DNA from: a virus
Taxonomy: Duplodnaviria > Heunggongvirae > Uroviricota > Caudoviricetes
IMG/VR virus record: IMGVR_UViG_2751185957_000009
DNA length: 13,336 bases
Direction: 5' to 3' (one strand)
Part shown: positions 1 to 13,336 of the stretch, one piece after another
How the letters are laid out: the number at the start of each line of letters is the position of its first letter
Numbering within the stretch: the stretch's first letter is position 1
The notes under the pieces: generated by a model
Told to the model about the DNA's origin: nothing
Database searches by the model: none
Seen by the model: the letters and a program-made list of their open reading frames with translations, nothing else
Program-made: the position numbers and the translations under genes

Positions 1-285
1 ACACGCCAGTTCGCCCGGATGTTGGGACTTGAACCGAAGAACACGGCGGTGCGGAGTCCGGAGAGTAACGGAATAGCAGAGAGCTTCGTGAAAACGATAA
101 AGCGTGACTACATCAGTATCATGCCCAAACCAGACGGGTTAACGGCAGCAAAGAACCTTGCAGAGGCGTTCGAGCATTATAACGAATGGCATCCGCATAG
201 TGCGCTGGGTTATCGCTCGCCACGGGAATATCTGCGGCAGCGGGCTTGTAATGGGTTAAGTGATAACAGATGTCTGGAAATATAG
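1..285 (+). CDS. insD: IS2 transposase OrfB (InsD) C-terminal fragment; 5' end outside window
   Basis: Reading frame is open from position 1. The translation ends ...[34 protein letters not shown], the conserved C-terminus of IS3-family integrase-core transposases ([12 protein letters not shown] motif). Confidence 0.8.
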
Positions 286-296
286 GGGCAAATCCA
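1..296 (+). mobile_element. IS2 (IS3 family) right-end fragment; the rest of the element lies left of the window
   Basis: Transposase OrfB C-terminus followed by a sequence I recognise as the IS2 right terminal repeat (GTTAAGTGATAACAGATGTCTGGAAATATAGGGGCAAATCCA), ending at 296. Confidence 0.8.
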
Positions 297-2510
297 GATC
301 CCACGATTAAAGGCGGGCGCTTAATCGTTGAAAAAGATGGGATTACCGTCCTTGCCGCTATCGAAAAGGGAGGATTACTGGAGGTTAAAGAGGGGGGATT
401 AGCGATTGCGGTAGATCAGAAAGCAGGCGGTGCTATTAAAGCAAGCACGCGGGTCATGGAGGCATTCGGAATAAACCGTCTCGGTCAGTTCGAAATCAAG
501 AATGGTATTGCTAACAATATGCTGTTGGAAAACGGCGGAAGTTTGCGAGTTGAAGAAAATGACTTCGCTTATAATACTACTGTAGATAGTGGCGGCTTAC
601 TGGAGGTTATGGATGGCGGGACTGCAACTGGCGTTGATAAAAAAGCAGGCGGAAAATTAATTGTCTCAACGAATGCGCTGGAAGTGAGTGGTACAAACAG
701 TAAAGGCCAATTTAGTATAAAAGATGGTGTGTCAAAAAATTATGAACTGGATGATGGTTCCGGGCTCATTGTTATGGAGGACACGCAGGCCATTGATACT
801 ATCCTTGATGAGCATGCCACTATGCAATCGCTGGGAAAGGATACTGGTACGAAAGTGCAGGCAAATGCGGTATATGATCTCGGTCGATCAGACCAGAATG
901 GAAGTATCACGTATTCCTCTAAAGCCATCTCTGAAAATATGGTTATCAACAATGGCCGCGCTAATGTCTGGGCTGGCACAATGGTTAACGTGTCAGTCAG
1001 AGGGAATGATGGCATTCTTGAGGTCATGAAGCCGCAAATAAATTATGCACCCGCTATGTTGGTGGGTAAGGTAGTGGTTTCTGAGGGCGCTTCTTTTAGA
1101 ACGCATGGTGCCGTGGATACCAGCAAAGCGGACGTTTCGCTCGAAAATAGCGTATGGGCCATCATTGCCGATATCACTACGACGAACCAAAACACCCTCC
1201 TCAACTTAGCCAACCTTGCGATGTCTGACGCAAATGTGATTATGATGGATGAGCCAGTGACTCGTTCATCAGTGACGGCAAGTGCGGAAAATTTCATTAC
1301 GTTGACCACCAATACCCTGTCGGGAAACGGCAATTTTTATATGCGTACCGATATGGCTAATCATCAGAGCGATCAGCTCAACGTCACCGGTCAGGCAACA
1401 GGTGATTTCAAAATATTCGTGACGGACACCGGTGCCAGCCCGGCAGCAGGAGATAGCCTTACACTGGTAACAACGGGCGGCGGTGATGCTGCATTTACGT
1501 TGGGCAATGCCGGAGGCGTTGTTGATATCGGTACGTATGAATATACCTTGCTGGATAATGGCAACCATAGCTGGAGTTTGGCAGAGAATCGCGCGCAAAT
1601 TACCCCTTCAACCACTGATGTGCTGAATATGGCGGCCGCACAACCGCTGGTATTTGATGCAGAACTGGACACCGTGCGTGAGCGTCTTGGTAGCGTAAAA
1701 AGCGTTAGTTACGATACGGCGATGTGGAGTTCGGCAATTAACACCCGCAACAACGTGACCACTGATGCGGGAGCTGGTTTTGAGCAAACATTGACGGGCC
1801 TGACGCTCGGTATCGATAGCCGTTTCTCCCGTGAAGAAAGCAGTACAATTCGCGGCTTGTTCTTTGGTTACTCTCATTCTGATATTGGTTTTGATCGCGG
1901 CGGAAAAGGTAATATCGATAGCTATACCCTGGGGGCTTATGCCGGTTGGGAGCATCAGAACGGTGCCTATGTTGATGGGGTGGTGAAAGTTGACCGTTTT
2001 GCCAACACCATCCATGGCAAGATGAGTAATGGGGCAACAGCGTTTGGCGATTACAATAGTAACGGCGCGGGTGCTCATGTTGAGAGCGGGTTCCGTTGGG
2101 TTGACGGATTGTGGAGTGTTAGACCCTATCTGGCCTTTACCGGCTTTACCACAGATGGTCAGGACTACACGTTATCAAACGGCATGCGCGCTGATGTGGG
2201 AAATACCCGGATATTACGCGCTGAAGCGGGAACGGCGGTAAGCTATCACATGGACCTGCAAAATGGTACGACGCTGGAACCCTGGCTGAAAGCCGCCGTA
2301 CGTCAGGAATACGCCGATTCTAACCATGTGAAAGTTAATGACGATGGCAAATTTAATAATGATGTGGCTGGAACCCCTGGCGTTTATCAGGCTGGGATAA
2401 GGTCATCGTTTACCCCGACGTTAAGCGGTCATTTGTCAGTCAGCTATGGCAATGGCGCAGGGGTAGAATCGCCGTGGAATACTCAGGCGGGAGTGGTCTG
2501 GACGTTCTGA
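270..2510 (+). CDS. Autotransporter (AIDA-I/Ag43-like) truncated by IS2 insertion; passenger beta-helix repeats plus C-terminal beta-barrel; probably a pseudogene
   Basis: 746-aa ORF whose first 9 codons, including the ATG, lie inside the IS2 terminal repeat. Passenger region has ~19-aa repeats (GGxLxVxxGGxAxxVDxKAGG). C-terminal ~270 aa has alternating aromatic/hydrophobic beta-strands and ends in WTF, typical of autotransporter barrels. No signal peptide or native N-terminus is visible. Confidence 0.75.
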
Positions 2511-2600: not shown

Positions 2601-3014
2601 CTTGGGATTTTTCACGAGAGTAGTTTAATTGAGCGTGTAACTTCATGATTTAAAATAATGTATATGATTCAACTTTTAAACCGTATAACCAAACGTATAA
2701 CTAAAATGATTTGCTGAAAAAATGCACAATTCAGGGTCGGATTTTCCCGGATGTTTAATTTATAAAAACGAAGCTGGTGGATGATCTGCGTGGTGATTTC
2801 CACCATTCAGAGCAGGGGCGGTCATCATGCCCATGCCATAACAAAAACCCCATATTCGTGGTTTTTCTGTGTTGTGGCTATTCTGCCGTTGCCGTGCTGG
2901 TGGATATTTCCGTTATGGGGATCACCATATCGGCATCATGCCCACCAGCCAGCGCAATTTTGCGCTTTGCTTTAAGTTCAGCAAGTTACCGCGCCGGATT
3001 ACGCCAATGGCTGT

Positions 3015-3194
3015 TTCCGAAAGAATCAACGGGTTAGGCCTTAATGGGCTGCGTGGTAATTATCAGCATCCAGAATATGACGGGTTATGTTTCCGACCTC
3101 CTCAATTTGAGGTTCCCGAAAATATCAACGGGTTAGGCTGGTTTCCCCGATGTTCGCCGCTGGCGAATTTCGAAAATATCAACCAGTTACCGCC
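3015..3194. repeat. Four direct repeats of an ~18-bp motif (AA(A/G)AAT(A/C)TCAACGGGTTAGG-like) with ~50-bp period
   Basis: Copies centred near 3024, 3073 (degenerate), 3119 and 3174. Largely non-coding; the last copy overlaps the 3' end of ORF 3187-3468. Confidence 0.5.
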
Positions 3195-3501: not shown

Positions 3502-3684
3502 CGGGTCCTTCCTGGAATTATGGACCCGTTACGGGGCGGCGACCTCGCGCGTTTTCACTATTTATGAAAATTTTTCGGGATCCATGTCCGGTTTCTCTAC
3601 AAGTTAACCATATGAAAAATATAAAAACATGCTTTCCATGAACCGGACATGCGCAAAAAACAGACACTAAAACCGGACATCGAA
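3502..3684 (+). other. Lambda-type cos site copy 1: cosN core plus cosB-like array of three AACCGGACAT sites around an AT-rich segment
   Basis: 3531-3578 (ACGGGGCGGCGACCTCGCGCGTTTTCACTATTTATGAAAATTTTTCGG) is near-identical to the lambda left end as I recall it (GGGCGGCGACCTCGCGGGTTTTCGCTATTTATGAAAATTTTCCGG); the 12-nt cohesive-end sequence GGGCGGCGACCT is at 3534-3545. AACCGGACAT occurs at 3641-3650 and 3671-3680 and inverted at 3584-3593. Confidence 0.75.
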
Positions 3685-4183: not shown

Positions 4184-4251
4184 AATGTTACCTTAACTGC
4201 ATGGTTAAATATTAATCAAGTGGTGGTGGTGTCACCTTCACGGAAAAACGT

Positions 4252-4316
4252 CATAAATAGCGAAAACCCGCGAGGTCGCCGCCCCGTAACGGGCCATAAT
4301 TCCAGGAAGGACCCGC
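4252..4316 (-). other. Lambda-type cosN copy 2, inverted relative to copy 1, upstream of the Nu1-like gene
   Basis: Reverse complement of 4252-4316 (GGGTCCTTCCTGGAATTATGGCCCGTTACGGGGCGGCGACCTCGCGGGTTTTCGCTATTTATGA) matches copy 1 over ~70 bp and matches lambda cosN including GGGCGGCGACCT (4274-4285 on the minus strand). No AACCGGACAT sites follow it. Confidence 0.75.
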
Positions 4317-4338
4317 AAAAAAGCCGGATTTCTCCGGC
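4317..4338 (-). terminator. Rho-independent terminator ending the capsid operon
   Basis: On the minus strand: GCCGGA-GAAA-TCCGGC followed by TTTTTT, 7 nt after the stop at 4345. Confidence 0.7.
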
Positions 4339-4344
4339 CTTGTC

Positions 4345-4758
4345 TCAGATGGTTTTCAGTATGCGATCGATGTCGCCGTCATCGCCTGGGTTTCTGCCAT
4401 CGTATGCCATGCCAGCTGATACGGTTTGTGGGCTGTGCATGTCCATAAAGTTTTCAAAGGCTGCGGTAAGCTCTGGTGCAACCTTCGGGCGTTCCTGCTC
4501 TATGGTCATGTTCAGGATGTTTTTAGCCGTATCAACATCGATACAAGGCACGTTTGCCATTGCACGCAACAGCGGCTGATAGTCTTTATGCTCATGAAGC
4601 GCCATAATCGCATCAGCGCGCGGCTTGTCCTGCTCTTCCAGTTTGTTGAGTTGATATACGGCCTCGTAGGTTGATAAACCTCTGTCAGCCATTGCCCGCG
4701 CTTCGGCTTTAAATTTACTCGCCAGCGGTAGCGCCATGATGCTTTCATTCGTTGCCAT
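4345..4758 (-). CDS. Hypothetical protein (137 aa), last gene of the capsid operon
   Basis: ORF with GGGGGA Shine-Dalgarno, starts 12 nt after the D-like stop. Acidic C-terminus. No family recognised. Confidence 0.55.
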   Translation of the reverse strand: MATNESIMALPLASKFKAEARAMADRGLSTYEAVYQLNKLEEQDKPRADAIMALHEHKDYQPLLRAMANVPCIDVDTAKNILNMTIEQERPKVAPELTAAFENFMDMHSPQTVSAGMAYDGRNPGDDGDIDRILKTI

Positions 4759-4770
4759 CGTTCCCCCTGC

Positions 4771-5106
4771 TTATCGGGCCAGCGGCTGAACGGATACGCC
4801 AGAACCCGCAAAGGCGGCGCATTTTTTCGCATCGGTGTCGACGCTCTCAGGCCAGTTAACGGCGGCAATATTGAATATCCCCGTCTTGTAACACTGTGCT
4901 GATTTCTGCTTTGACGTGTCCACGAGGTACGAAGTCAGATAAACAGCCTTGCCAGATTCCTGACCATCCCACGGCTTAAACTCGCCATTGTCCACCAGCA
5001 TCAGCGGGGTAAATTCCTGAATAACGCCAGCATCAGCGGCAAAATGTACCAGTGTCGTTGATACCTGCTGACTGCCTGCAAATAACTCAATATATGGAGT
5101 GTCCAT
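4771..5106 (-). CDS. Head decoration protein, lambda gpD homolog (111 aa)
   Basis: Similarity to lambda gpD as recalled: TPLMLVDNGEFKPWDG vs TPLMLDTSSRKLVAWDG; CYKTGIFNIAAVNWPESVDTDAKKCAAFAGSGVSV vs [35 protein letters not shown]. Same length class. GGGGGA Shine-Dalgarno. Confidence 0.85.
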   Translation of the reverse strand: MDTPYIELFAGSQQVSTTLVHFAADAGVIQEFTPLMLVDNGEFKPWDGQESGKAVYLTSYLVDTSKQKSAQCYKTGIFNIAAVNWPESVDTDAKKCAAFAGSGVSVQPLAR

Positions 5107-5117
5107 ATAATCCCCCG

Positions 5118-6173
5118 TTAACCAATTTTGACGGTAACAAATTTGCGAATATCTGCCGGAACCGGCTGCGGTGCGCTGTGTGTCTGCACGTACTCAATCG
5201 CCGGATCGCCGTCCTCAATCCAGTTTTTCGGGTAGTACATGTTTTGCGTTGCGCCCGTTCTTACCGCTTCCTGATCCATAATCGCACCATAGGCCACCAG
5301 CCCTTTATTGTTGGTGTTGCCCAGGACCAGCAAATCAGGCTCAAGGAAATATTTTTCGGTGCCGTCGCTGTCAGTGTATTTGCCGGAATAGACAATAAGA
5401 GCAATATCGCCCAGATAGCCTTTAAAGCTCACCACTTCGCCCAGGTTTTTACAGGCCATTTCTGCGGCGGATTCTGAACCACGGGAAAGATCGTACAGTT
5501 CACGGAATTTTTTAAAGCTGCGTAACGTGCGCCATACCTCAGCGCCCATAATCATGACGTTGGCGGGGCAACCTGCCTGATCTGCGTATAGTTCGATGTC
5601 ATAGATTGGATCGTAAATATCTTTATCATGCTCGGACCATTTTTTGCCGTCGGACTGCTCTATGATGTTTTTTTCCGGTATCTTCCAGTCGATTTCATAG
5701 CGTTCTATGCCTTCGCCCTCAATGATGTTTTTTCCGGTCGTTACCGCATTCACCGCCAGCCATTCCACGCGTGCCTTAATGGCGTTTATCTGGCGGCGCA
5801 TGTTGCCAGTAATCAGGCGCATACGGCGATAGGTAGGGTCGTTAAGCTGTGCCGGATCTTCTCCAGCCATGCGCATGATGGTTTTCGTTGGATCGATTTC
5901 GTGCTTTGGCTTCATGTAGCCAGGTTTGATTGTGCTGGTTTCGTACCCTTTATCGCGCTGAACCTGGCTACCCACCATAGGCGAACAAAACGCCGACATG
6001 GTGACTTCTTCAATGTCCAGGGTATCCAGCATGATGTTTTGCGTGCTGAATGTCGCCACGTTCGGGAAAAACAGCGTGGTAAACAGAGGGCTGAATTTAA
6101 AATCCGCAATATCCCCGCGATTCAGGTACATAAAAAGCTGGTTAGTGTTAAGTGCCGTTGCTTTGCCTGCCAT
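5118..6173 (-). CDS. Major capsid protein, lambda gpE homolog (351 aa)
   Basis: Conserved blocks shared with lambda gpE along the whole length: DFKFSPLFTTLFF, IKPGYMKPKHEIDP, GEDPAQLNDPTYRRMRLI, VSFKGYLGDIALIVYSG, YPKNWIEDGDPAIEY. Roughly 45-50% identity by eye. Confidence 0.9.
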   Translation of the reverse strand: MAGKATALNTNQLFMYLNRGDIADFKFSPLFTTLFFPNVATFSTQNIMLDTLDIEEVTMSAFCSPMVGSQVQRDKGYETSTIKPGYMKPKHEIDPTKTIMRMAGEDPAQLNDPTYRRMRLITGNMRRQINAIKARVEWLAVNAVTTGKNIIEGEGIERYEIDWKIPEKNIIEQSDGKKWSEHDKDIYDPIYDIELYADQAGCPANVMIMGAEVWRTLRSFKKFRELYDLSRGSESAAEMACKNLGEVVSFKGYLGDIALIVYSGKYTDSDGTEKYFLEPDLLVLGNTNNKGLVAYGAIMDQEAVRTGATQNMYYPKNWIEDGDPAIEYVQTHSAPQPVPADIRKFVTVKIG

Positions 6174-6379
6174 TATTCACCCCCATAATTTTTATGCATC
6201 CCAAGCGCCGCAAGTAAATAAGAGCGTACAAGTGAACCTATCGACGGCTCCGGCGTCATCAGCGGATCCAGTCCAGCCGCCACGCCAGCCTCATAGTTTT
6301 TTTTGTGGCGCTGCTTGAGCACCTCCACGATTTCGGGGCTTATGTACACCGAAACACCGCCTTTTTTCTCTTCAGCCAT
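6173..6379 (-). CDS. Hypothetical small protein (68 aa), first gene of the capsid operon, coupled to the E-like gene
   Basis: Its stop overlaps the E-like start (TAATG). AGGAA Shine-Dalgarno. No family recognised. Confidence 0.55.
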   Translation of the reverse strand: MAEEKKGGVSVYISPEIVEVLKQRHKKNYEAGVAAGLDPLMTPEPSIGSLVRSYLLAALGMHKNYGGE

Positions 6380-6407
6380 AGTAAGAAATTCCTCTTCGAC
6401 TAAAAAA

Positions 6408-6463
6408 ATCAGGACTGGATGTTTATCCAGTCCTGATTATAATCAGAATTGCATTTTATGCAA
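6408..6463 (-). promoter_or_regulatory. Putative sigma70 promoter (TTGCAT-16-TATAAT) overlapped by a perfect 13-bp inverted repeat, upstream of the capsid operon
   Basis: Minus strand: -35 TTGCAT (6463-6458), -10 TATAAT (6441-6436). Palindrome ATCAGGACTGGAT-GTTT-ATCCAGTCCTGAT at 6408-6437, followed on the minus strand by seven T. A second small palindrome TTGCATTTTATGCAA at 6449-6463. Confidence 0.5.
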
Positions 6464-6540
6464 TAATATTGAGTTATGTTGCAAATTATGAAATGATTAT
6501 CCCGATCACGAACGCCAGTGCATCCAAAAACCTCATATGC

Positions 6541-6609
6541 AAAAGCCCGATAAGAACCCTCTGACCTTATCGGGCTTTTTTGGGCGCAAAAAAGCCGGAT
6601 TGCTCCGGC
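6541..6609 (-). terminator. Tandem rho-independent terminators after the 74-aa gene
   Basis: Hairpin 1 (6545-6575): 9-bp stem GCCCGATAA/TTATCGGGC flanked by A4 and T6, so bidirectional. Hairpin 2 (6594-6609): GCCGGA-TTGC-TCCGGC with an A6 run, which is a T-run on the minus strand. Confidence 0.65.
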
Positions 6610-6629
6610 TATGTGTGCTGTGTGCTGGA

Positions 6630-6854
6630 TCAGTCTCTGATCTCTTTCAGAAATTCTATCAATGCATCTATCTGTTCAGGATTTACCGCCAGCATTTCAC
6701 CGGATAGAGCACATCTCACAAAACCATGCTGATCCTTTTCAATCAGTGCGCCCGTCTCCAGGAATGCGCGGTAATCATTGATGCTCATCGTCTCCATGTT
6801 GTCAGCATGGTATTTATCACGCTGTTTTAATATCTCATCAAATTTCATCGGCAT
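6630..6854 (-). CDS. Hypothetical small protein (74 aa), stand-alone gene bracketed by terminators
   Basis: ORF with its own upstream intergenic region (6855-6950), terminators on both sides. No family recognised. Confidence 0.5.
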   Translation of the reverse strand: MPMKFDEILKQRDKYHADNMETMSINDYRAFLETGALIEKDQHGFVRCALSGEMLAVNPEQIDALIEFLKEIRD

Positions 6855-6950
6855 TGTTTTTTTCCTCTGTTGTGTCTGTTTGTTTCAGATAGTAACTATG
6901 CCTGACCGTGACGAAAACCCGGTAATGCGCCATACCGTTTCAACTGGTGC

Positions 6951-6972
6951 AAAAAAGCCGGATTTCTCCGGC
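6951..6972 (-). terminator. Rho-independent terminator after the PerC-like gene
   Basis: AAAAAA-GCCGGA-TTTC-TCCGGC, reading hairpin then T6 on the minus strand, 8 nt after the stop at 6980. Same module as 4317-4338. Confidence 0.7.
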
Positions 6973-6979
6973 TGTTTGA

Positions 6980-7252
6980 TTAGCTGTCCTGGTAATTGCG
7001 CCATATTTCATCACCAGCACCATCTATACCCATTTCGGCATAAGTGCGATCGACTGCCTTTTTCAGGTCTCCGAAATTATCCGGCGGCTCCGGTGCCCTC
7101 TGTGCCTTCCTTGAACATTCCAGCCGTCGCATCGTGATGTGATGCCGTTCCTTGTCTGTCTCCACCAGCTGCATGACTTCACCCCATCGCGCCGCCGCCC
7201 TCCGGTAAAAGCCTTTCGCCTCCAGTTCCTCCGCTATGCGGTCATGTACCAT
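6980..7252 (-). CDS. PerC-family transcriptional regulator homolog (about 90 aa; an upstream in-frame start at 7372 is possible)
   Basis: Motif IAEELEAKGFYRRAAARWGEVM matches the PerC-family signature as I recall it (AExLExxGxWRRAAxRW). The ATG at 7252 is preceded by GAGGGGG and lies 11 nt after the SSB stop. Family assignment from memory. Confidence 0.6.
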   Translation of the reverse strand: MVHDRIAEELEAKGFYRRAAARWGEVMQLVETDKERHHITMRRLECSRKAQRAPEPPDNFGDLKKAVDRTYAEMGIDGAGDEIWRNYQDS

Positions 7253-7930: not shown

Positions 7931-8123
7931 CCTCTCACTTTTTCGCCTCACTTTTTCAAGCGTCTCACTTCGTCGCAGTTGGGATTTTCGGTTTTTCTAT
8001 GTGTGTGTTTTATAAGTATTTTTTTACCCCTCACTTTTGAGGATGTATACAGGTCGAAAAGTGAGGGAGAGCGGGCTAATTTTGGCCCTCTTTCTATCCC
8101 CCTCGCTTTTGCTCCTCACTTTT
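7931..8123. repeat. Putative replication origin: at least six CCTCACTTTT iterons around an AT-rich spacer, directly 3' of the replicase gene
   Basis: Iterons at 7934, 7948, 7964 (variant), 8029, 8101 (variant) and 8114, plus one inverted copy at 8057-8066. AT-rich stretch 7991-8027. The last iteron overlaps the replicase stop codon. Confidence 0.65.
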
Positions 8124-9522
8124 ATAGCGGCGCTACATCATCCCCATCGATACTAATAACCCCATCTTTTTCCAGCTTGTACAGCCAGCGCCGGAAGTTT
8201 TTCATTTCATACCCCAGCTTTTTCATGTCATCACGTAACAGCGGGATCGTGCACTTGTCGCCGTTCTGTGTGCGTGAACGGATGCACCCCCATAGCGCGG
8301 TATGGTTTTCCGTCTTGTTCCCTGCCTCCTCGATGCGCTCCAGTTCAACAGGAGGGCGCGGATCATCCACCACCACCAGCGACGTGATTAATTCACCGTC
8401 AGCGTCGGTAAAAAGCTCCACCACGCGTAAGTCATATGCGGCTTCTTTGAGTTCCTCCGCGTCCTTCATTTTGGTGCATGAGATAACCAGCGCTTTGCTT
8501 CCTGCGTCCTCCCTGCGTATCCGGTATTCAGCATCCAGCGAAGCACGAAATGCACTGGAACCGCGCGCGCCTTTCGTCTCATCCTTGCCGGAATGGTGAA
8601 CCACCAGCACCGTGGCCCCTGTGCGTCGTTTCAGTTCGTCACAACCACGGATAAACGCCCCCATATCACGGGAATCATTTTCATCATTCCCACCAAAGCA
8701 ACGCGCCAGCGTATCCAGAATAATCATGCGTACAGGTTTACCCGTTTCCCGCTCCACCTGACGGGCAGCGATAACCATTTCATCAACATCAAGCGGGGCA
8801 GCCGGAAAGATGGGGCGGTTTACCAGATACAGATTTTTCACCTGCTCATCGTGCACAACCTCCCAGGCTTTTACACGACGCGGAACGCCGATACCGCCTT
8901 CACCAACCACATAGAGAACCGCACCATGTGCAACCCTGCGGCCTCCCCACTGGCGACCAGTGGCAACATGGCACGCCCACGATCCGGCAAGGAATGATTT
9001 ATAGGACCCGCTAGCCCCGTATATGCTGCATAGCGATACCGCCGGAATAATCCCCTTAACCACGTAATCCAGTTGCGTGTCGTATCCGGTAGATCCAACG
9101 CTCATCGGTAGCGTGGTTTTTCGCTGGTGGTTTTTTTCTTCCACCGGCTCTTTCCCGCGCACCCGTTCCAGGTATTCGCGCCAGTTCTCCCGCATATGGC
9201 TGTGCATCCCTTCGGGGTAATAATTCGCATCAGTTACACCCGCCGCCGCCAGCTTGTGCGCAATGGCATTAATATTTGATGGCCTGATGTGGCCTGCCTT
9301 GTACAGCCGGACACAATAGCGCCCCTCGTCGATGATTCTCAGGTCTGCCAGTTCATCCAGTTGATCATCAGCCAGCACAACGGGAGGCACATTATCGCCA
9401 GCCAGTCGCCCGTCCTGTTCCTGCCACTGTTTTGCATGTGCCCAGGCATCACTACCCGCAAAAATAATGACTTCGGTCATCTTGTCGTAAGGCTGTTTTT
9501 TTAAGTTCGGTGCGCTTTTCAT
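8122..9522 (-). CDS. Replication protein with RecA-like AAA_25 ATPase domain (satellite replicase/helicase, 466 aa)
   Basis: P-loop-like YGASGSYKSF, Walker B-like MIILD, and the signature VLVVHHSGKDETKGARGSSAFRASLDAEY typical of AAA_25 replicative ATPases. Its start overlaps the upstream ORF stop (ATGA). Confidence 0.8.
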   Translation of the reverse strand: MKSAPNLKKQPYDKMTEVIIFAGSDAWAHAKQWQEQDGRLAGDNVPPVVLADDQLDELADLRIIDEGRYCVRLYKAGHIRPSNINAIAHKLAAAGVTDANYYPEGMHSHMRENWREYLERVRGKEPVEEKNHQRKTTLPMSVGSTGYDTQLDYVVKGIIPAVSLCSIYGASGSYKSFLAGSWACHVATGRQWGGRRVAHGAVLYVVGEGGIGVPRRVKAWEVVHDEQVKNLYLVNRPIFPAAPLDVDEMVIAARQVERETGKPVRMIILDTLARCFGGNDENDSRDMGAFIRGCDELKRRTGATVLVVHHSGKDETKGARGSSAFRASLDAEYRIRREDAGSKALVISCTKMKDAEELKEAAYDLRVVELFTDADGELITSLVVVDDPRPPVELERIEEAGNKTENHTALWGCIRSRTQNGDKCTIPLLRDDMKKLGYEMKNFRRWLYKLEKDGVISIDGDDVAPL

Positions 9523-10687: not shown

Positions 10688-10773
10688 AACGGCTCCTAGT
10701 TTACGTTGTTGGTTAGAAGCCCTGCGAGTGGTAATGACACTTGCGGGGCTTTGCTTTTTTAAGTGCTCTTGTG

Positions 10774-10824
10774 TTAAGGTGGCCACCTAACAATGGAAAG
10801 GCTAATTCAATAGGTGACCACTTG
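10774..10824. promoter_or_regulatory. Divergent control region with two palindromic operator-like sites (GGTGGCCACC and GGTGACCAC)
   Basis: TTAAGGTGGCCACCTAA at 10774-10790 and ATAGGTGACCACTTG at 10811-10824, centres ~35 bp apart, between the divergently oriented operons. An imperfect hairpin plus T-run lies at 10718-10760. Confidence 0.5.
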
Positions 10825-10887
10825 TCAATAATCAAACGCGATAAAAGCCCTAAAGGGGACGGGCAATCCCCACAATTCAGAATGCGA

Positions 10888-11013
10888 ATTTCTCCAGAGC
10901 TAAAAGAGCAATTCGACAAAGAAGCACAGAGCGACGGCATAAGCCTAGCCAACTGGCTTAAAGAGTTGGGGCGCACTGAACTAAAGCGGCGCGGCATAGA
11001 ACCCAAAGGATAA
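10888..11013 (+). CDS. Putative ribbon-helix-helix (Arc/CopG-like) DNA-binding protein (42 aa from ATG; the ORF track starts at TTG 10741)
   Basis: MRISPELKEQFDKEAQSDGISLANWLKELGRTEL fits the beta-strand, helix, G-loop, helix pattern of RHH proteins. Start uncertain; weak ribosome-binding site. Confidence 0.4.
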   Translation: MSPELKEQFDKEAQSDGISLANWLKELGRTELKRRGIEPKG

Positions 11014-11392: not shown

Positions 11393-11599
11393 TTAAGCAG
11401 CCGTTCCGCGTGCTTCCTGTTCGCGTTCTTTCTGCCAGGCCAACACATCATCCTCATACCATCCGCGACGGCGTAAACCAACGCGAAAACCCTGCGGAAA
11501 TTCTCCGGCGTTGATCATGCTTTGCAGCGTGCTGTCTGCCTTGATGTGGATAATTTTTTTTACTTCCTGGCGAAAGATAATTTTTCTGATTGCTTCCAT
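11393..11599 (-). CDS. alpA: AlpA-family transcriptional regulator / excisionase-like protein (68 aa)
   Basis: Motif RQEVKKIIHIKADSTLQSMINAGEFPQGFRVGLRRRGWYEDDVLAWQKER matches the AlpA (Phage_AlpA) pattern as recalled (EV..I.....STLY.....G.FP..IKLG.R.V.W...EV..W). AAGGT Shine-Dalgarno. Confidence 0.8.
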   Translation of the reverse strand: MEAIRKIIFRQEVKKIIHIKADSTLQSMINAGEFPQGFRVGLRRRGWYEDDVLAWQKEREQEARGTAA

Positions 11600-12094: not shown

Positions 12095-13336
12095 CTACAC
12101 GGCTCGGATACCCCTTTTACCACTGGCGAGGGTTACGCCCGTCGCCGCAGCCTCGACAAATTCGCCCCACCAGCGCATCAGCACGATGCGTTTTTCTATG
12201 TAGTTGCTCCGGTTGTATGCCCGTCTAACTTCGTTGGTGTCGACGTGGGCAAGTGCCGCCTCTATTACGTCCGGCTCGAATCCTTCCTCGTTCGCTGCTG
12301 TGCTGAATATGGCGCGTAATCCATGAGACACCAGCACGCCAGCGAATCCCATACGCCGCAATGCTGCGTTAGCTGTCTGGCTGTTCATCGGCTGCTGTGG
12401 GTCTTTCAGACTTGGGAAAACGTAATTGCGGTGGTGGCTGATTGGTTTCATGGCCTCCAGCACCGCCATAGCCTGACCGGAAAGCGGGATAACGTGATCC
12501 CTGCGCATCTTCATGCGTCCGGCAGGTATCGTCCATTGCTTCGCGTCCAGGTTGATTTCATCCCACCGCGTTGATGACGCTTCGGCGGGACGGGTTACGG
12601 TCAGTAACTGCCATTCAATCAGTAATCTGGTCTGCCGTTCTGTTGCCGATACTGATAAAGCCTGCATAAGCTCCGGCAGCTGTTCGGGGCGGATTGTTGG
12701 CATATGTTTTTTTACAGGTGAGGGAAACGCCTTACGCACATTCATAGCCGGATTGGCATCAATCAGCCCACTGTTGGCGGCGTAATCCATTACCTCATTA
12801 ACGCGCTGTAAAACCCGCTTGAGTGTTTCCAGGTTGCCGCGCTCCTTGATGGGTGTAAGCACTTCAACGAACCTTCGGGCGGTGAGGGTATCTATTGGCG
12901 TGTTGCCGATGAACGGGAATACATATTTATCCAGCGAACGCCAGATGTCTTTAATCGTGTTGGGGGCCAGATTCTGGCTGATTTTCACCTGGTACCATGC
13001 CGCCGCCACATTTTCGAACGTGTTCCCTTGTCTTCGGGCCTCTGCCTCTCGTTTTTTCTTCTCATGGCCCTGCGGGTCAGTTCCGGCACTGATTAACGCT
13101 CTGTACTCGCTACGGCGTTTTCTGGCATCAGCCAGGGAAACATCATCAAGCGATCCAAAACTCAGCAATATTCTTTTTTTGTCCGATGGCCGGTAGTAGG
13201 AAAATCGCCAGAGTTTTGATCCGGACGGTTTGACCAGGAGAAAAAGCCCTCCGCCGTCCTGTAGGGTGTATTCCTTTTCCGCTGGTCTGGCTGCTTTGAT
13301 CTGCACCGTGGTTAATGGGGGTGTTTTTCTCGCCAT
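12095..13336 (-). CDS. int: P4-type tyrosine integrase (413 aa)
   Basis: N-terminal arm-binding domain typical of P4-like integrases (LTTVQIKAARPAEKEYTLQDGGGLFLLVKPSGSKLWRFSYY), C-terminal catalytic region with HGLR and the tyrosine in RRAYNRSNY. Start codon is the last three bases of the window. Confidence 0.9.
   Translation of the reverse strand: MARKTPPLTTVQIKAARPAEKEYTLQDGGGLFLLVKPSGSKLWRFSYYRPSDKKRILLSFGSLDDVSLADARKRRSEYRALISAGTDPQGHEKKKREAEARRQGNTFENVAAAWYQVKISQNLAPNTIKDIWRSLDKYVFPFIGNTPIDTLTARRFVEVLTPIKERGNLETLKRVLQRVNEVMDYAANSGLIDANPAMNVRKAFPSPVKKHMPTIRPEQLPELMQALSVSATERQTRLLIEWQLLTVTRPAEASSTRWDEINLDAKQWTIPAGRMKMRRDHVIPLSGQAMAVLEAMKPISHHRNYVFPSLKDPQQPMNSQTANAALRRMGFAGVLVSHGLRAIFSTAANEEGFEPDVIEAALAHVDTNEVRRAYNRSNYIEKRIVLMRWWGEFVEAAATGVTLASGKRGIRAV

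Follow-up and report, generated by a model that had tools for sequence, protein, structure and literature searches.

The stretch of DNA considered here, virus record IMGVR_UViG_2751185957_000009 of IMG/VR (13,336 nucleotides (nt), Caudoviricetes; hereafter the window), is a classical Gram-negative phage-inducible chromosomal island (PICI) of the Rpp (redirecting phage packaging)/cos type, belonging to the EcCICFT073/EcCI042 family. On its minus strand lies an operon of four genes, which encode a protein of 68 amino acids (aa), a homolog of the lambda major capsid protein gpE, a homolog of the lambda decoration protein gpD, and a protein of 137 aa. Profile searches identify the 137-aa protein as a homolog of the lambda scaffolding protein Nu3, so the island does carry a predicted scaffold gene, and the last three genes of the operon together make up what is, by homology, a scaffold, shell and decoration kit. 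The Nu3-type fourth gene thereby turns an apparently stray capsid gene into part of a coherent scaffold/shell/cement set.

The four genes are tightly coupled translationally. The stop codon of the 68-aa gene and the start codon of E overlap as TAATG at 6173, the spacers before D (11 nt) and before the 137-aa gene (12 nt) both contain GGGGGA, and a terminator at 4340-4317 directly follows the 137-aa gene on its 3' side (Table 1). An earlier note on this DNA, made from the letters alone, had described a compact four-gene operon with coupled starts and a terminator, in which diverged homologs of lambda E and D occur in the order E-D, and that description is confirmed in each of these respects.

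The identity of the shell and decoration proteins is clear. The 351-aa product matches the Pfam family Phage_cap_E (PF03864) with an E value of 3.4e-51 (174.7 bits, where the cut-off is 22.9), in an alignment that spans positions 16-328 of the 329 in the profile; its PHROG match is phrog_29, 'major head protein' (2e-107). Aligned with lambda gpE over 327 residues, it shows 44% identity and two gaps, and it is 95% identical to the copy of the type found in Escherichia coli Nissle 1917. Its matches in the PDB include the lambda structure 7VI9 (3e-83) and, at 1.2e-231, the CFT073-type entry 3BQW, a crystal structure deposited as 'putative capsid protein of prophage' and reused by others as a model. 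3BQW is a folded HK97-type protein and a near-identical counterpart of the window's E. The 111-aa product matches the Pfam family HDPD (PF02924) at 6.3e-17 (62.2 bits, cut-off 29.1) and is 36% identical to gpD; its best PDB match is the SHP protein of phage 21 (1TD0, 2.9e-12), and gpD itself (7VII) is matched at 4e-9.

What is the fourth protein? It matches phrog_1999 at 4.4e-65 and phrog_53, which is labeled 'head maturation protease', at 2.7e-9; the latter match falls at positions 494-567 of 583, the counterpart of the C-terminal Nu3 part of lambda gpC. Residues 117-200 of lambda Nu3 in turn match positions 42-129 of the 135 in phrog_1999 at 2.7e-26, and a 195-aa repeat protein, P0009, from an exhaustive search matches phrog_53, phrog_8399 ('head scaffolding protein') and phrog_1999 together. 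In a multiple alignment the 137-aa protein runs end to end over the last 131 residues of Nu3, and the two have in common a repeated 'xIMxL...A..P.......AK.IL' motif and an acidic-hydrophobic C-terminal tail. The case for a scaffold rests on profiles because a direct BLASTP comparison with Nu3 is marginal (E = 0.11). Indeed, the link was obtained only through the PHROG profiles and P0009: a single-sequence search against 1.8 billion representatives gave just 9 hits, and neither tblastn against 50,697 phage records nor a search of the PDB gave a match. The 137-aa gene is a stand-alone open reading frame (ORF) with its own ribosome-binding site; it is not nested in a protease gene, and no protease domain is encoded on the island. 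The earlier note had stated that the operon lacks a scaffold, which is mistaken, and had listed both flanking proteins as candidate size-determination or scaffold-like factors, a suggestion that was right for the 137-aa protein.

The rest of a head is not encoded on the island. Pfam and PHROG profile searches of the island ORFs found no portal, protease, large terminase or connector, in agreement with the earlier note on the first two; no island ORFs other than those for integrase, replicase and E exceed 300 aa, and outside the capsid operon the only match to a head or packaging family is the helix-turn-helix of Rpp. The scaffold (over the C-terminal 131 residues of Nu3), the decoration protein and the HK97-fold shell protein are homologous between the island and lambda, and the succession of a cos site and a helix-turn-helix protein gene on the island mirrors that of cos and Nu1 in lambda. 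In contrast, E and D reach only the identities given above, the two scaffolds resemble each other weakly, and the scaffold gene of the island stands alone. The counterparts of W, B, the C protease, A, FI and FII are missing, and the order is E-D-137 aa rather than the C/Nu3-D-E order of lambda (D at 5747-6079 and E at 6135-7160).

How widespread is this module, and is it maintained? In a survey of region 4300-6500 against 5426 complete E. coli genomes, the operon is present in 598 (11%, or about one in nine), including those of O157:H7, Nissle 1917 and uropathogenic strains, and in 594 it forms a single full-length block at 92-97% identity. Ratios of nonsynonymous to synonymous substitution (dN/dS, by the Nei-Gojobori method) were estimated from ten loci, in which all four ORFs are intact and dS reaches 0.8-1.8; they are 0.11 for E, 0.12 for D, 0.26 for the 68-aa gene and 0.31 for the 137-aa gene. 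ORF integrity was followed in 80 IMG/VR loci, and for E in these and others to a total of 90. The earlier note had allowed that E might turn out frameshifted in relatives; instead, its ORF is intact in all 90 loci. The 68-aa gene is full-length in 79 of the 80 loci, D in 78 (both exceptions lie at contig ends) and the 137-aa gene in 68. The IMG/VR contigs that carry the operon are almost all 4-15 kb long.

Among the 50,697 phage records, E has 405 hits, all below 60% identity and the best at about 47%. Recent capture from a helper phage can be ruled out, since no phage capsid protein among these records exceeds 47% identity. An island of Salmonella enterica subsp. diarizonae has the same arrangement of small protein, E and D, and its 351-aa E is 67% identical to that of the window without gaps. 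From these comparisons we read the module as an old, satellite-specific lineage under purifying selection.

The existence of capsid genes on these islands is not new; they have been known since 2018 and were discussed again in 2019 and 2023. The best studied relative, EcCICFT073, has the same four genes in the same lengths and order, c1498 (68 aa), c1499 (351 aa, capsid), c1500 (111 aa, head decoration) and c1501 (137 aa, unannotated), as listed in the supplement of Fillol-Salom et al. (2018, PMC6092414). It has the same overall architecture of int, pri, SSB, PerC, capsid operon, cos, rpp and cos; it differs in that the left flank of the window is an autotransporter gene with an insertion sequence (IS) fragment, and no complete RefSeq E. 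coli genome matches the window at 99% or above. Fillol-Salom et al. (2018, ISME J, PMC6092414) described c1499 and c1500, asked whether they act like the capsid protein homolog Ccm of SaPIbov5, and deleted each. Lambda interference was unchanged in both deletion mutants, the DNA packaged by EcCICFT073 was all phage-sized, and the authors state that no phenotype of c1499 was found. Induction by a helper and transfer at high frequency were demonstrated for EcCICFT073 only, and the closely related island of E. coli 042 failed to transfer in the published test (PMC6092414). Fillol-Salom et al. (2019, PMC6739421) went on to show that the binding of Rpp to the small terminase (TerS) of the helper explains both interference and preferential packaging. 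A review by Dokland (2019) noted the capsid homolog together with the full-size capsids, and later work has these islands packaged as concatemers of roughly three units in large capsids. Finally, Tommasini et al. (2023, PMC10111431) reported that 21 of 29 reference Gram-negative PICIs have a capsid gene, defined a 'late zone', which in the window is the region of the capsid operon, and proposed that late genes are captured from helpers and then lost, with a possible backup role. A literature search, made largely without subscription journals, found no paper that names c1501 a scaffold or gives the operon a function. The Nu3-type identity of the fourth gene, the data on selection and lineage, and the promoter-in-terminator layout described below are modest additions of the present analysis.

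This leaves a puzzle: the capsid operon is conserved, yet laboratory transfer of the satellite that carries it requires none of it. Could the published negatives have been confounded by the c1501::tetA marker used in those experiments? This can be dismissed, because the recombineering primers put the cassette directly between the stop codon of c1501 and the terminator; the c1501 ORF is left intact, and the published negatives therefore stand.

The reading we favor, tentatively and with slightly less than even confidence, is that the operon is an accessory, full-size shell kit used together with the head machinery of the helper and redundant with the helper shell. Upon helper induction, the operon would be transcribed from its own promoter within a terminator hairpin, insulated from the early island genes. 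The island scaffold would nucleate island E on the helper portal and would then be removed by the gpC-type protease of the helper. Rpp would steer the helper terminase to the neighboring cos of the island, the terminase would fill the resulting shells, and island D would cement them. Such shells would have the full size, would consist of island protein entirely or in part, and would duplicate those of the helper; this proposed redundancy would account for the lack of a deletion phenotype when helpers are fully competent. A benefit from the kit would arise under special circumstances only, such as a limiting supply or compatibility of helper shells.

Several points weigh against this proposal. 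Deletion of c1499 or c1500 caused no drop in transfer by the natural CFT073 helper or by lambda and phi80 helpers, and any contribution of theirs is thus dispensable in the laboratory (PMC6092414). That island proteins enter particles is presumed. Island E is only about 45% identical to helper E, so that co-assembly and a fit to the helper portal and protease are assumed. The scaffold gene is the least conserved of the set, with two frameshift alleles, and is absent or replaced in a few loci; where its homolog would sit, the Salmonella relative has an unrelated 79-aa gene. The 68-aa protein has no assigned role in the proposed kit. Lastly, the candidate promoter is a sequence reading only: a consensus promoter scan skipped the TTGCAT-16-TATAAT arrangement, in which the -35 element matches at 3 of 6 positions.

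Perhaps, instead, the kit is a backup that replaces interrupted or defective helper shell genes and allows mobilization by shell-deficient helpers. Some PICIs integrate in the E gene of a helper, and many resident lambdoid prophages are cryptic. Moreover, helper gene E is the commonest insertion site of helper-embedded PICIs, which themselves have an E gene, and a backup role has been proposed for the latter (PMC10111431). Scaffold, E and D are exactly the set with which to replace a helper shell, the purifying selection fits a conditionally essential role, and a backup would also account for the lack of a phenotype with intact helpers. However, the island of the window does not lie inside a prophage, since the autotransporter gene and IS fragment adjoin it on the left and its 042 relative sits in tqsA; that a shell protein with about 45% identity would suit the portal and protease of the helper is again an assumption; and, according to the authors themselves, the redundancy is not essential (PMC10111431). 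On balance we regard this explanation as unlikely.

Another possibility is that the kit redirects capsid size, the role that the earlier note had suggested in the form of altered capsids or exclusion of helper DNA. Ccm, CpmB and Rcm are precedents from other satellites. Small capsids are also formed by PmCI172, a PICI of Pasteurella that has a capsid homolog (PMC6092414), and the island has a scaffold homolog of its own, scaffolds being the proteins that usually determine size. Yet the idea was tested with negative results on the near-identical genes of EcCICFT073, where packaged DNA is all phage-sized and deletion of c1499 or c1500 leaves interference intact, in experiments whose marker left c1501 undisrupted, and later work treats these islands as concatemers of about three units in large capsids. 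We consider it distinctly unlikely that island E and the Nu3-like scaffold form small, island-sized capsids that exclude helper DNA, a version that would now apply to certain other helpers.

A further possibility is that island E, D or scaffold poisons the head assembly of non-helper lambdoid phages through co-assembly or titration. PICIs commonly carry interference and defense functions, and a diverged yet homologous lineage would suit a dominant-negative subunit. On the other hand, lambda interference is unaffected by either deletion and is accounted for by Rpp, there were no PADLOC matches, and the strong full-length conservation of E, without gaps, resembles that of a working shell protein and not of a decoy; this explanation is improbable. 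The notion of inert cargo, a decaying remnant of captured helper late genes with no present function, draws on the published proposal of capture and loss and on the missing deletion phenotype, but is strongly disfavored and scarcely credible given dN/dS values of 0.11-0.31 at dS up to more than 1, an E ORF unbroken in all 90 loci, conserved translational coupling, and a nearest phage relative at 47% identity, which makes the capture old and the genes maintained.

A rather unlikely but appreciable further prospect is that the Nu3/E/D trio has co-evolved and builds shells of its own on a borrowed portal, which would make the island mobilizable by helpers whose shell genes are broken, interrupted or incompatible, perhaps with another capsid size for some helper, c1501 having apparently gone unrecognized so far. 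The islands would then stand between classical PICIs, which steal everything, and cf-PICIs (capsid-forming PICIs), which take only tails.

How does the accessory shell kit, as we favor it, compare with known satellite systems? As with SaPIbov5 Ccm, CpmB and Rcm, the satellite encodes homologs of helper head proteins, and as with the alternative scaffolds CpmB and Rcm, the satellite scaffold has the C-terminal region of the helper scaffold. Those proteins, however, redirect capsid size and interfere with the helper, whereas the EcCICFT073 homologs did neither under the conditions tested. The cf-PICIs such as EcCIEDL933 (Alqurainy et al.) are likewise E. coli PICIs that encode their own capsid proteins; their backbone is int-alpA-rep, which the window parallels with int, rep and an alpA candidate by position. 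They differ in encoding an HK97-type capsid protein, protease, portal, connectors, HNH, TerS and the large terminase TerL, and in forming small capsids of their own, whereas the island of the window has scaffold, shell and decoration only and relies on Rpp and the helper terminase. Helper-embedded PICIs such as 11capE (Tommasini, Mageeney and Williams 2023) have a late zone in which the E-type gene is the commonest, but are integrated inside helper late genes, unlike the chromosomal island of the window. If the kit is functional, these islands would fall on a continuum from satellites that steal whole capsids to satellites that make their own. If it is not, the strong purifying selection needs some other explanation.

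The 68-aa protein, the product of the first gene of the operon, matches phrog_3255, a family of unknown function, at 8.5e-46, and has no sequence match in Pfam, NCBIfam, PADLOC or the PDB. An AlphaFold2 model (mean predicted local distance difference test score (pLDDT) of 70) has an extended or strand-like N-terminus and two helices, and a Foldseek search of the PDB with this model gave nothing significant, the best match being the DNA-binding domain of TraM (E = 0.37). With this pLDDT and no significant match of fold or sequence, a ribbon-helix-helix regulator is unsupported; the protein is possibly a small DNA-binding regulator, to go by the model.

A terminator scan lists three intrinsic terminators (6973-6956, 6610-6593 and 6438-6407), which separate the replication genes from the operon. 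The last of these folds as RNA at -26.1 kcal/mol (z = -5.5 against shuffled sequences), and its outer stem varies in a compensatory manner, with GG/CC in the window, TA/TA in locus L001 and CA/TG in L004. The candidate -10 element that overlaps it is kept along with its surroundings in nine of ten aligned loci, the tenth having TAAAAT. A transcript from the candidate promoter would lack the 5' arm of the hairpin and would therefore escape termination. This layout suggests, as far as it can be read from the DNA, that early island transcription is kept out of the operon, whose expression would start from a regulated promoter of its own. A late promoter and terminator of the type governed by helper Q was also considered and is unsupported: region 6380-6560 had no match among the 50,697 phage records (blastn in distant mode), and no Rfam family was found in the window.

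A nearly identical hairpin, (A/G)GCCGGAG(A/C)AATCCGGC followed by a run of T, is used three times on the minus strand, at 6973-6956 after PerC, at 6610-6593 after a 74-aa ORF and at 4340-4317 after the capsid operon. From its sequence it looks like a duplicated terminator cassette.

Table 1. Positions of the capsid operon, its candidate control signals and the neighboring packaging elements in the window
Feature	Position	Strand	Evidence
Candidate sigma-70 promoter of the capsid operon	6436-6463	minus	TTGCAT 6463-6458, 16-nt spacer, TATAAT 6441-6436; sequence reading
Hairpin (14-bp stem, U7 run) that overlaps the candidate -10 and immediately precedes the ribosome-binding site of the 68-aa gene	6407-6438	minus	terminator scan
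68-aa protein gene (c1498 homolog)	6173-6379	minus	ORF call
gpE-type major capsid protein, 351 aa (c1499 homolog)	5118-6173	minus	ORF call, Pfam, PDB match
gpD/phage 21 SHP-type head decoration protein, 111 aa (c1500 homolog)	4771-5106	minus	ORF call, Pfam, PDB match
Predicted Nu3-type scaffolding protein homolog, 137 aa (c1501 homolog)	4345-4758	minus	ORF call, PHROG profiles
Intrinsic terminator at operon end	4317-4340	minus	GCCGGA-gaaa-TCCGGC hairpin and T6, read from sequence
Lambda-like cos site, cosN GGGCGGCGACCT at 4273-4284, pointing to rpp	4238-4315	minus	inverted-repeat arms, exact cosN
Rpp family protein, 144 aa	3749-4183	minus	PDB 6HLK RppC 5.3e-31; N-terminal helix-turn-helix, phrog_57 small-terminase similarity
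Second cos site, in the opposite orientation to the first, with its cosN at 3534-3545	3502-3580	plus	inverted-repeat arms, exact cosN

Nearly all ORFs of the island are on the minus strand, and one end is formed by the integrase ORF at 12095-13336(-), with Phage_integrase, Phage_int_M and Arm-DNA-bind_3 domains. The replicase ORF at 8122-9522(-) encodes 466 aa with an AAA_25 match at 2e-43, its relatives being annotated as helicases of the RepA family, and Pfam also identifies SSB and PerC. A second 68-aa ORF, at 11393-11599(-), occupies the position expected for AlpA; it has no Pfam match at E<=1e-3, and its 042 counterpart is annotated only as a helix-turn-helix regulator. Overall, the island is 98% identical to that of E. 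coli 042 over 75% of its length; the 042 island sits in tqsA, and the left flank of the window is different.

Reading 3'-ward, the operon terminator is followed by a cos site and then by rpp, which is flanked by the two cos sites as an inverted repeat of about 80 nt. No exact cosN match is expected by chance, and the cos site at 4238-4315 matches the left end of lambda. Both sites are found in most related loci, two of which (L006 and L008) have one exact cosN only. They correspond to cos1 and cos2 of EcCICFT073, where only cos1 is needed for transfer (PMC6739421).

Some related loci differ in what adjoins or makes up the module. At the position of the window's Rpp, L005 (Nissle 1917; 798-1340) and L056 (8605-9159) have a TerS-like gene of 180-184 aa, which is unrelated to the 144-aa Rpp by BLASTP (E = 1.4), beside capsid operons nearly identical to that of the window; the gene for packaging specificity has therefore been swapped independently of the capsid module. 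In the Salmonella island (L091, 7727-9025) there are two tandem Rpp-like genes, of 141 and 146 aa. The tail of its 79-aa protein (…EPAPAPV…AEDIAAINNLLLSVPAH) is loosely like that of lambda Nu3 (…GAPAPLAAGNPASDAVNDLLNTPV), a likeness that is statistically unsupported.

The operon is itself a mosaic. Between the window and L005, the 137-aa gene is identical in DNA (dS = 0) and the 68-aa gene has a dS of 0.49 and a dN of 0.19, an inequality from which recombination within the operon follows. Alleles of the 68-aa gene fall into two main classes, with about 32% of residues different between them. Covariation of the N-terminal arm of E with scaffold alleles was sought in the 90 loci and gave no clear pattern, the alleles being shuffled by recombination. 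The most divergent E. coli copy (L003 1-5157, from strain CFIAFB20180511; 81% identity) has a 115-aa scaffold variant and directly adjoins P2-like genes for tail sheath, baseplate and tail fiber; this PICI may lie in or abut a prophage of the myovirus type rather than a lambdoid one.

Other observations concern the edges of the island and its one divergent gene. The only sizeable plus-strand ORF, at 10741-11013(+), encodes 90 aa with a weak HicB-like match (9e-4), and its 042 counterpart is annotated as YlcI/YnfO family; judged by these matches, it may be an antitoxin-like or regulatory gene that diverges from the early operon. At the non-integrase end of the island, positions 3013-3192 contain three direct copies of a 27-nt unit, GTTTCCGAAAGAATCAACGGGTTAGGC (100%, 89% and 63% identity), spaced by 99 and 54 nt, an array that could represent integrase arm sites or other protein-binding sites. 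In the left flank, a C-terminal fragment of an IS3-family-like transposase (19-285) runs straight into a 746-aa AIDA/pertactin autotransporter ORF (270-2510(+)), which is probably truncated because there is no obvious signal peptide at its start.

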